Of a stretch of DNA of 64,000 bases, positions 1,076 to 51,263 are shown piece after piece. Within the stretch, counting starts at the first letter, position 1. The number at the start of each line of letters is the position of its first letter. Location of the stretch: positions 508,937 to 572,936 of the forward strand of contig CAVVAY010000007.1 in NCBI GenBank assembly GCA_963746465.1, read 5' to 3'. The notes beneath the pieces were generated by a model, which saw only the letters and a program-made list of their open reading frames with translations, did no database searches and was not told the origin of the DNA. Made by a program: the position numbers and the translations under genes. The stretch comes from an uncultured Actinomycetota bacterium. Lineage in GTDB: Bacteria; Actinomycetota; Actinomycetes; JACCUZ01.

Positions 1076-1151
<76 letters not shown>

Positions 1152-21581: not shown

Positions 21582-21663
21582 CCGCCGGATCACATGATCC
21601 ACACCGGATCGGTACGCCGTTGTGTGACCGATCCGGTGTGGATCACGAAGTTGGCAGGCGGGG

Positions 21664-25913: not shown

Positions 25914-26852
25914 ATGTTTAGAACGGGTAAACGCGTGGATGATCGCCCGGTGTCGCCCGCCGTCGCCCGCTGCGGGGGCGGCGACCTATCGTCGAGCCCC
26001 GTGACCTCCTCGCCGGCCGGTACCGATCCCGCCGCCCACCTCGCGACCCTGCCCGGCGTGGCCGAGGCCGTGGACCGGGCCCGCCGCGCGGTCGACGACC
26101 TGCGCGGCCACCGGGTGCTCCGGCGCTCTGCCGACCGGGTAGCAGCCGAGTCCGCGCTGCGCGGCGCCCGGGCCTCGGCGGCGCTGGCCGGCGCAGATGT
26201 GCCGCTCGACGTCCTCCGCACGGCTCTGACCCCGTCCGCAGAATCCGGTGATCATGAAGCTTCCACCCCTCAAGTGGGGGGCCAAACCTTCATGATCACC
26301 GACGGTGAGCAGCTGGCTGACGCCGACCCGGGCGTGGTGCAGGGTGCGCTGCGGGTCGCGGCCGAGATCGGTCCGCTGCGGGCCACCTGGGCGCAGGCGC
26401 CGCTGCAGGTGGTGGCCAGGTTGCACACGCTGGCCGCCGCAGGCTCGGTGCCGGACGACGAGCTCGGCCGGCCGGCTGCCGGCGCTGCCACCCGGCTGGC
26501 CGGCCTCGGCCAGCTGCTGACCGCGTCGAGCAGCGCACCGGCCCTCGTGGTCGCCGCCGTGGTGCACGGCGAGCTGGCGACGATGGGTGCCTTCGCGGTC
26601 GGCGCCGGGATCGTCGGGCGGGCTGCCGGTCGGCTCACGATGGTCGGGCGGGGGCTGGATCCGACGGCGGTGTCGGTGCCCGAGGTGGGACACGTCGAGC
26701 TGGGCCGCGAGACATACCTGCAGGCGTTGGCCGGCTACCTGCAGGGCGGCCCCGACGGCATCGCGGCCTGGGTGGTGCACTGCGCCGAGGCGGTGGTCCT
26801 CGGAGCACGCGAGGGCGTCGCGATCTGCGAGTCGATCCAGCGCGGCGGCTGA
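25914..26852 (+). CDS. conserved hypothetical protein (occupies the position of Mtb Rv3662c), start uncertain
   Basis: The long ORF has high GC3. The first ATG, at 25914, sits in AT-rich sequence. Alternative GTG starts are available up to 26001. An AT-rich palindromic segment lies in frame (see findings). Confidence 0.45.
   Translation: MFRTGKRVDDRPVSPAVARCGGGDLSSSPVTSSPAGTDPAAHLATLPGVAEAVDRARRAVDDLRGHRVLRRSADRVAAESALRGARASAALAGADVPLDVLRTALTPSAESGDHEASTPQVGGQTFMITDGEQLADADPGVVQGALRVAAEIGPLRATWAQAPLQVVARLHTLAAAGSVPDDELGRPAAGAATRLAGLGQLLTASSSAPALVVAAVVHGELATMGAFAVGAGIVGRAAGRLTMVGRGLDPTAVSVPEVGHVELGRETYLQALAGYLQGGPDGIAAWVVHCAEAVVLGAREGVAICESIQRGG
26247..26301. repeat. nested palindrome: GGTGATCATGAAG-N29-CTTCATGATCACC enclosing CCCC-tcaagt-GGGG
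   Basis: Read from the sequence. Its GC content is markedly lower than the flanks. It lies inside the 25914-26852 ORF and preserves the reading frame. Confidence 0.6.
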
Positions 26853-26885: not shown

Positions 26886-26910
26886 AGCGGCGCCCCCGAG
26901 AGGGCGCCGC
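26886..26910. terminator. GC-rich hairpin GCGGCGCCC-ccgagag-GGCGCCGC between convergent genes
   Basis: Read from the sequence. It sits in the 230-bp gap between the convergent 25914-26852 and HAD genes. No U-tract follows. Confidence 0.35.
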
Positions 26911-27083
26911 CTTGGGGCACGTCAGACCGGGTTACCAGGCGTGCACCATTCGTCGGGAGACCAGGACTAGCCTGGCTCGCCGGCCCGTACATGGGCAGGT
27001 CGCCGCGTGGGTACTCAGCTGCCGTGCTTCACCCTCAGGTGTAACGCACCAACGGTGTCGGGGGAAGGGCCCGCGGCCCTTCT

Positions 27084-27977: not shown

Positions 27978-28121
27978 GTATCGAGCATAGGGACGGCAAA
28001 ATCCGCCCTGTGCGGGGGCGCAACGTTTGCGTGTCGGGCCGAGACGGGTACATCCTGGACCTGGAGCTTCGCTGCGACGAAGCACCCAGTGTCCGGCCCA
28101 TCCCCCCCGGGTCGGACCGCA

Positions 28122-28155
28122 GACGGCCCCCGCTCTCCCCCCGGCGGGGGCCGTC
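28122..28155. promoter_or_regulatory. 10-bp perfect inverted repeat GACGGCCCCC-N14-GGGGGCCGTC in the Tad-locus leader
   Basis: Read from the sequence. It lies about 110 bp upstream of the ssd/cpaE-like start, in the 290-bp divergent intergenic region. Confidence 0.3.
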
Positions 28156-28267
28156 GCATGTCCGTCCCCAGGTCGACCGCCGCTCACCGTCTTCCCCAGA
28201 TGCCTCCGCGGGTCCGTCGGCGGCCGTCGTCCCGGGCCACCGTGGTCACCCGACCTCGGAGGTTGCC

Positions 28268-51189: not shown

Positions 51190-51263
51190 GCCGCCTTAGC
51201 TCAGTCGGCTAGAGCGACGCACTCGTAATGCGTAGGTCATCGGTTCGACTCCGATAGGCGGCT
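51190..51263 (+). tRNA. tRNA-Thr (anticodon CGT)
   Basis: The sequence GCCGCCTTAGCTCAGTCGGCTAGAGCGACGCACTCGTAATGCGTAGGTCATCGGTTCGACTCCGATAGGCGGCT folds by hand into a cloverleaf with anticodon loop CTCGTAA. CCA is not encoded. Confidence 0.9.

Follow-up and report, generated by a model that had tools for sequence, protein, structure and literature searches.

The window analysed here is a stretch of 64,000 nucleotides from contig CAVVAY010000007.1 of an uncultured Actinomycetota bacterium. It contains an open reading frame (ORF) for a conserved actinobacterial protein with a predicted Fic-like fold, and within this ORF lies a perfect palindrome, the element with which this account is concerned. 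The features of element and host gene are collected in Table 1. Taken together, the evidence makes it likely that the palindrome is a copy of a dispersed family of hairpin repeats of the Actinomycetota, inserted in frame into the sequence for a linker of the Fic-like protein.

Table 1. Coordinates of the palindromic element and its host gene in the window.
Feature	Position	Strand	Description
Host ORF	25914-26852	+	conserved actinobacterial protein, predicted Fic-like all-helical fold (from ORF, homologues, predicted model and Foldseek)
Left arm, CGGTGATCATGAAG	26246-26259		family-conserved core GTGATCATGAAG at 26248-26259; host-frame reading ..G D H E..
Variable 28-nt interior with inner hairpin	26260-26287		52-nt subtype, consensus GTTCC.CCCCGCAAGTGCGGGG.GGAAC
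Inner hairpin	26266-26281		CCCCTC 26266-26271, loop AAGT 26272-26275, GGGGGG 26276-26281
Right arm, CTTCATGATCACCG	26288-26301		host-frame reading ..T F M I T..; holds in-frame ATG 26292-26294
57-nt (19-codon) block GGT...GAC	26247-26303	+	encodes GDHEASTPQVGGQTFMITD, residues 112-130; absent from closest orthologues L001 and L002
Hexamer CGGTGA, second copy	26303-26308	+	the first copy lies precisely 57 nt upstream (26246-26251); evident from the sequence itself

The first-pass annotation of this DNA had described a 13-bp inverted repeat (GGTGATCATGAAG, 26247-26259, and CTTCATGATCACC, 26288-26300) that encloses a second hairpin and lies in frame inside the ORF, encoding ...ESGDHEASTPQVGGQTFMITDGEQ.... 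These points hold, the enclosed hairpin (CCCCTC-AAGT-GGGGGG) included, and one extra complementary pair on each side extends the inverted repeat to a perfect 14 bp. The palindrome spans 56 nt in total, rather than the 55 bp first given, and the indel that distinguishes the window from the closest empty orthologue measures 57 nt. The segment had also been called AT-rich, which is true only in relation to its surroundings: the GC content of the element is 57% (arms 42%, interior 64%), lower than that of the rest of the ORF (76%) or the window (73%). Folded as RNA, a check that the annotation had proposed, the segment forms a strong hairpin (-36.1 kcal/mol, z = -4.95; none of 200 shuffles folded as well), and its fold as DNA is also stable (z = -3.9). 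The interior of the window copy is partly decayed relative to the consensus of its subtype. The direct repeat of CGGTGA could be a substrate for slippage, leading to precise deletion, or a trace of the target; among the carriers of the insert that were compared, the window alone has it.

Homologues of the host protein number in the thousands, and the true start codon of the ORF may lie downstream of 25914. The protein has no match in Pfam (Pfam Fic included) or NCBIfam. An AlphaFold2 model built from 116 sequences is all-helical (mean predicted local distance difference test score (pLDDT) 89; predicted template modelling score 0.83), and a Foldseek search of the PDB with this model retrieves solved Fic proteins (7cb8, 3zcn, 3eqx and FICD) with probability 1.0, template modelling scores of 0.5-0.6 and E-values down to 2e-4. 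The canonical Fic motif is HxFx(D/E)GNGRxxR. The host segment that aligns with the catalytic loop reads HGELATMGAFAVGAGIVGR instead, and to judge from the sequence the motif looks degenerate. Residues ~106-130 of the model are coil (pLDDT ~60) between confident helices, and it is here that the insert falls: according to the model, the inserted residues sit in a surface or disordered loop and the fold stays intact. Of the peptide encoded by the element, only about 8 of 18 positions are conserved. Downstream of the host gene lie, in this order, genes for a HAD hydrolase, an Rv3660c_N-domain protein and a T2SSE ATPase; the first-pass annotation had named Rv3662c-like proteins as possible orthologues, and this putative assignment fits the synteny.

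Alignment of 121 orthologous sequences, as the annotation had suggested, shows the residues to be an insertion that most orthologues lack. The ancestral linker at the insertion point is ~15 aa long (RTVSAGGRLPxxxEP), and an insert or its remnant is found in about 10 of the 121, namely the window, P0006, P0046, P0094, P0002, P0007 and P0009 and, in decayed form, P0003, P0004 and P0005. Both of the closest orthologues are empty, namely the full-length P0001 (locus L001; 89% identity overall, 95% in the C-terminal part) and the partial P0034 (locus L002). At the DNA level the window differs from L001 by a clean indel of exactly 57 nt, or 19 codons, and it is for this reason that the reading frame is kept: with 26247-26303 removed, the window reads PSAESGEQLAD where L001 reads PPLELAERLAD, and the linkers are of equal length. 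The possibility, raised from the start, of a small inserted element that the linker tolerates is thus supported by the absence of the residues from most orthologues, by the clean indel and by the low confidence of the loop. The opposite pattern, in which orthologues share the residues in GC-rich codons and no other copies exist, was not found. One candidate orthologue, L116, was rejected on inspection, being an independent intergenic copy of the element downstream of an MFS gene.

In two of the three frames the arms introduce TGA codons. Given a span of 52 nt, this leaves one frame on each strand without arm-derived stops, and it is in this frame that the window copy is read. Owing to its palindromic symmetry, the element encodes xDHE...FMIT in either orientation. 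In some assemblies, gene callers report relatives of the host gene as split or truncated at the TGA/ATG of the element.

A pattern scan for GTGATCATGAAG-N18-40-CTTCATGATCAC across one genome per bacterial species returned at least 119 stretches (the numbers of copies per genome and of genomes given here are lower bounds), and in all of these copies the 12-nt arm core is identical to that of the window. Since the same arms recur at at least 119 other sites in other genomes, origin of the palindrome by chance is excluded. The same observation bears on the idea that the segment is native to the gene, for example a quasi-palindrome perfected by template switching and kept for its peptide, its resemblance to sequences elsewhere being coincidental. 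The peptide motif DHE...FMIT does recur in several orthologues, and the length of the linker is variable anyway; but the segment is missing from most orthologues, GC-poor codons persist in a gene of 76% GC, and identical arms with closely similar interiors at so many unrelated, mostly non-coding sites effectively refute an explanation to which we attach next to no probability.

The family so defined consists of elements 42-61 nt long, in each of which an interior of 18-37 nt, lineage-specific and self-complementary, is bracketed by a pair of invariant, mutually inverted 12-nt arms (GTGATCATGAAG ... CTTCATGATCAC). It is spread over at least ~50 Actinomycetota assemblies that represent four orders or more and comprise 35 Micromonospora species, Planosporangium, Actinopolymorpha, metagenome-assembled genomes (MAGs) of Jiangellaceae and Streptosporangiales, and 11 unclassified Actinomycetota MAGs. 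One MAG supplies at least 20 of the sampled loci, and one Micromonospora genome at least seven. No copies were found in PLSDB plasmids (blastn) or in IMG/VR viral contigs (pattern scan). Nor is there a match to any Rfam 15 family at gathering thresholds for the window and four family loci (the permissive mode gave only noise, E > 1), and the family was not found in the searchable literature, where published occurrences of the arm sequence are unrelated primers: the repeat family appears to be undescribed.

Three main subtypes of 51, 52 and 59 nt can be distinguished, with interiors specific to each lineage. The 59-nt type of Micromonospora has a second stem of 8 bp (TTATTGCC/GGCAATAA, together with covarying variants) and an asymmetric centre with CGACACGCCG. 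In examples such as L061 (67-125), L033 (4937-4995) and L036 (3466-3524), the conserved CGACACGCCG, or its complement on the opposite side, stands beside ~8 nt that differ wholly between copies, and a few copies (L011 and L036) retain the two halves of the centre as a perfect apical stem. The impression is of one half of the apex being replaced instead of slowly mutated. The orientation of the asymmetric centre bears no relation to gene direction (11 forward and 11 reverse between convergent genes). In the 51-nt type the arms are doubled in tandem (GTGATCATGATC-GTGATCATGAAG ... CTTCATGATCAC-GATCATGATCAC). The MAG CAVXLQ01 is very rich in this type, with at least 20 sampled loci (for example L041, 7108-7182, and L072, 3131-3205), and up to three copies occur within 8 kb in a sister MAG (L056).

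For the 52-nt type, to which the window copy belongs, 30 copies were compared with shuffled controls. Paired bases occupy 84.4% of cells; the corresponding figure is 75.0 ± 0.9% after shuffling and 31-47% with the partners slid against one another. Changes on both sides of a pair are found in 96 cells as against 47 ± 5, and 15 pairs show compensatory types. Pairing of the interior is preserved through compensatory changes although the sequence differs between copies. Outside the arms, the flanks are G-rich for at least 24 nt on the 3' side and C-rich on the 5' side, and are more complementary to each other than to shuffled partners. Of 232 family flanks, a single one has TTTT in its first 24 nt. 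Gene context, assigned by periodicity of GC content at third codon positions, places 22 of the matches listed between convergent genes, 34 at a 3' end and seven at a 5' end; none lies between divergent genes, and none of the 119 is in frame inside a gene. Family members are normally located just downstream of genes, often between convergent ones.

When the window is searched with a covariance model built on the 52-nt type, the copy in the gene obtains 61 bits on both strands and the next match just 12.7 bits; relaxed arm searches agree on a single family copy. One weak match to the model, at 21590-21650, was rejected as a family copy: it belongs to a different hairpin, whose orthologous site is kept in L001 (5665-5713) and absent from all other loci. 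This hairpin (21583-21660, 57% GC) immediately follows a stop codon; its 19-bp inverted repeat (TGATCCACACCGGATCGGT / ACCGATCCGGTGTGGATCA) is perfect, its loop is 13 nt long, and one of its ends, GTGGATCACGAAG, resembles the family arm. The further genomic copies that the first reading of the sequence had proposed to look for are many, and they include one in a close relative of the window. Its contig_1921, which is 87-92% identical to the window in DNA, bears the intragenic copy (L005) and, ~130 kb away, a second one (L124), which lies 12 nt past the stop codon of a 760-aa ORF. The interior of this second copy, GTTCCCACCCGCAAGTGCGGGGAGGAAC, is nearly equal to the interiors of the intragenic copies; the lineage therefore has its own subfamily, of which the gene copy is a member. 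The window copy is a rare in-frame intragenic member of the family.

Invariance of the 12-nt arms over at least four orders, with variation in everything between them, invites a different reading of the family: that its members are not mobile DNA but pairs of sites which a conserved host factor binds or recognizes, akin to uptake-sequence pairs that double as terminators, and that selection both gives rise to them and keeps them, the copy in the gene being one such site. A recognition site has no need, however, of an interior that is self-complementary and compensates its changes, and lineage-specific interiors point to amplification within genomes. The strong bias towards 3' ends, the integrity of the arms even within a coding region and the lack of any target-site duplication, transposase or parent element found would be in keeping with selected sites. 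Yet at one and the same site the element is present or absent among close relatives with clean 57-nt boundaries, and that a pair of 12-mers should arise de novo in the linker of a protein, as it would have done at least once and probably two times, is most improbable. We therefore regard fixed sites for a host factor as a very unlikely explanation, and the preferred reading remains that of a dispersed repeat inserted in the gene.

The first-pass annotation had held open a second interpretation, an internal terminator or attenuator that splits the ORF into two functional units. Positive support for this is lacking: no T/U tract follows the hairpin, a terminator consensus scan does not call the window element, and the window ORF is intact. 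The associated suggestion of an internal start codon has some basis, insofar as the right arm supplies an in-frame ATG and two relatives are split at the TGA/ATG of the arms, although sequencing error is the likelier cause of the splits. In L005 (9958-10008), whose element is one base shorter, the TGA that closes the upstream frame overlaps the restart ATG (ATGA). L126 (5957-6008) has a 2-nt difference upstream; there the N-terminal ORF stops at the TGA of the left arm and the C-terminal ORF starts at the ATG of the right arm. Both come from long-read metagenome assemblies in which many neighboring genes are also fragmented, and because of this the splits are probably sequencing (indel) errors. 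They nevertheless show that the arms hold ready-made stop and start codons, a route by which the element could split a gene.

A role of the hairpin as internal terminator, attenuator or gene-splitting device – with TGA in one frame of the arms and ATG in another, a frame change would turn one gene into two ORFs, the C-terminal one having its restart at ATG ATC ACC – is for these reasons judged very unlikely. The window ORF is in frame, close relatives fare well without the element, both split cases are likely assembly errors, and the T/U tract is missing not only here but throughout the family flanks with the one exception already given. What can be said for such a role is that the RNA hairpin is very stable (-36 kcal/mol), that L005 and L126 break precisely at the TGA/ATG of the arms, that conservation of the arms exceeds neutral expectation, and that the family lies at gene 3' ends, where it might act on transcripts. 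The space that separates the Fic-like gene from the convergent HAD-hydrolase gene has a canonical terminator-like hairpin with a T-rich tail at 26886-26911 (-); this conventional terminator is not where the family element landed. An integron attC site was also considered and rejected: GTTRRRY core sites are missing, and the elements lie in a setting of convergent genes, not of cassette arrays.

The history of the intragenic copy was traced on a neighbor-joining tree of the conserved C-terminal part of the host protein, built without support values. The clade of the window consists mostly of carriers; the non-carriers P0001 and P0034 are nested beside the window, with P0008 nearby, and non-carriers nested among carriers imply secondary loss or allele replacement. 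Within this clade the element has been inherited vertically. Indeed, the copies are mutual best matches in both interior (20-25 of 28 positions) and flanks, as is expected under vertical descent. In the lineage of P0003, P0004 and P0005 (L127) the left arm is partly deleted, the right arm is mutated and the codons are richer in GC, changes that read as an element decaying into ordinary coding sequence.

Two further carriers, P0007 (L003) and P0009 (L004), stand alone in neighboring clades where the linkers of their sisters are 21-22 aa long on the same anchors. In L003 the element sits 13 residues into a 15-residue linker, compared to ~10 residues into a linker of 19-21 residues in the window, and the L003 interior matches those of L108 (23/28) and L049 (22/28), which are unrelated loci in other genomes, better than it matches copies from the clade of the window (14-18/28). 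To judge from these comparisons, the linker has probably received the element in frame a second time in L003, independently of the window's clade; the alternative would be one old insertion followed by many losses and by conversion from other copies. L004 is too decayed to be assigned as a separate or a shared insertion. In two filled sites, the window (26303-26308) and L003 (10384-10400), CGGTG stands directly after the right arm. The empty sister site of L003, L211 (ACG GGG CCG GTG), has CCGGTG at the corresponding place, matching the left terminus of the element (CCGGTGATC), and this match may hint at targeting by similarity between terminus and target.

With regard to mode of spread, the flanks of family members show no direct target-site duplication; their positions tend to pair as inverted complements instead, at a frequency of 0.66 at position 1 and 0.41-0.57 further out (control 0.29-0.49). 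Within ~1 Mb of sampled loci there are no pairs of arms at distances typical of an insertion sequence (IS), hence no full-length parent element; the one ORF bracketed by two copies (L113) looks AraC/GyrI-like, judged from its translation. A tblastn search with E. coli RayT against ~1.1 Mb of loci returned nothing at E < 1, a test of low power, because it covered sampled loci only and a RAYT gene would be single-copy.

The following course of events may be proposed. The element would be, or have been, mobile but non-autonomous, moving as a hairpin much like repetitive extragenic palindromic (REP) sequences and their inverted doublets, the REPINs. A copy of the family probably entered the DNA for the variable, disordered linker of the Fic-fold protein in the lineage of the window, and survived there by lying in the only frame that escapes the TGA codons of the arms and by adding a net 57 nt, so that the frame continues. 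The protein gained 19 loop residues (GDHE...FMITD) and stayed intact. Absence from the nearest relatives would reflect secondary deletion, promoted by the palindrome, or allele replacement; and the element within the host gene would be a tolerated passenger, not a regulator.

Several observations weigh against this account. Among orthologous carriers, 24 of 24 arm positions are identical, as compared to 65-78% identity in flanking coding DNA and 14 of 28 positions in the interior, and the arms use GAT, CAT and GAA codons, which are disfavored in this genome. In L004, L006 and L127 the element has decayed, as would be expected of a purely passive passenger; identity of the arms therefore implies constraint at the level of DNA or RNA, gene conversion or repeated insertion, and a simple passenger without some such further process would not account for it. 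No transposase, parent IS or target-site duplication was found in the sampled loci, so that mobility is inferred; the 64-kb window holds but one copy by covariance model and relaxed arm searches alike; and no clean filled/empty pair was obtained at the one intergenic site compared (80 metagenome relatives lack the element at the L124 site, where the downstream DNA is non-homologous and the boundaries are unreadable). Finally, the metagenome assemblies of several relatives are error-prone, and the tree is without support values.

Among the remaining features of the window, a 6C RNA (RF01066; 55 bits, above the gathering score) lies at 28088-28159 (+), upstream of the Rv3660c_N-domain gene. The latter begins a cluster resembling those for Tad/Flp pili, with T2SSE, T2SSF, DUF4244 and TadE-like genes in orthologous loci. 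An Rfam scan detects two tRNA genes, at 1076-1149 (-) and 51190-51263 (+).

REPINs are inverted REP doublets thought to be mobilized by RAYT tyrosine transposases, and in anatomy the family comes closest to these. Like them it is short, multi-copy, intergenic and biased to gene 3' ends and convergent pairs, and it is built of inverted conserved units around a variable paired spacer that together form one long hairpin without target-site duplication; it too lies in GC-rich inverted structures at the ends of genes and has the occasional intragenic copy. Differences are found in the single 12-nt arm, which is not itself a stem-loop, and in the ends, which carry no conserved GTAG or CGTC and are flanked by CCG/CGG. 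The low-power search of sampled loci found no RAYT for the family. The two superfamilies of REPs are defined by a GTAG or a CGTC tag, some REP families lie within small GC-rich palindromes, and intragenic REP copies are known (PMC3733652); the same survey does not mention actinomycetes or Actinomycetota. The family would thus appear to work as a REP/REPIN-type element but, because the GTAG/CGTC tag is absent, it is not filed as a member.

Rickettsia palindromic elements (RPEs; Ogata et al. 2000, as cited in PMC3184786 and PMC3733652) offer a second parallel. RPEs are palindromic repeats of ~105-146 bp that lie in frame within protein genes, and also in non-coding DNA, of an AT-rich alphaproteobacterial host, in-frame insertion being common. 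As in RPEs, the window insert keeps the frame, adds a peptide and spares the protein, and the same family occurs in non-coding DNA. The element is, however, only 56 nt long, and in-frame insertion is exceptional in its family (0 of 119 among the matches listed); kinship in sequence is not expected, and the parallel is an analogy only.

MITEs (miniature inverted-repeat transposable elements) are non-autonomous derivatives of DDE insertion sequences. In bacteria they are small, hairpin-forming and multi-copy, with terminal inverted repeats and with filled and empty sites among relatives (PMC3184786). The family shares the small size, the terminal inverted repeats (perfect over 12-14 nt) and the filled and empty sites, but it lacks direct target-site duplications, its flanks tending to be inverted complements; no full-length element with the same ends occurs in the ~1 Mb of sampled loci; and at 42-61 nt its members are at or below the usual size of MITEs. 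The window element also lacks the T/U tract that, after a G+C-rich stem-loop, defines a Rho-independent terminator.

Rickettsia RPEs and certain REP, BOX and BRE elements provide well-known examples of palindromes inserted in frame (PMC3184786, PMC3733652), so that the phenomenon is not in itself new. What does appear to be new is the repeat family, absent as it is from Rfam 15 and from the literature that could be searched. A broader proposal, which we put forward tentatively as possible rather than probable, is that hairpins armed with GTGATCATGAAG are an undescribed mobile family across the class Actinomycetes; that a dedicated enzyme reads the 12-nt arms; that the target is the apex of C-rich/G-rich inverted structures at gene ends; that the Fic-like linker is a recurrent or favored target, with at least two independent in-frame captures; and that the arms are kept by constraint on DNA or RNA.

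For annotation, the finding explains a low-GC stretch of 19 residues in a conserved actinobacterial protein as derived from a repeat. REP-like elements have been little studied in high-GC Gram-positive bacteria, and the family is widespread in Micromonospora and other actinomycetes. With arms invariant across orders, interiors whose pairing is kept by compensatory change and a strong bias towards gene 3' ends, it is tractable for asking how such elements move and act. Capture of the repeat by the same linker more than once, if true, would be a small natural experiment in selfish DNA turning coding, and its interest would grow if a dedicated enzyme exists or if the Fic-like linker is a true hotspot.

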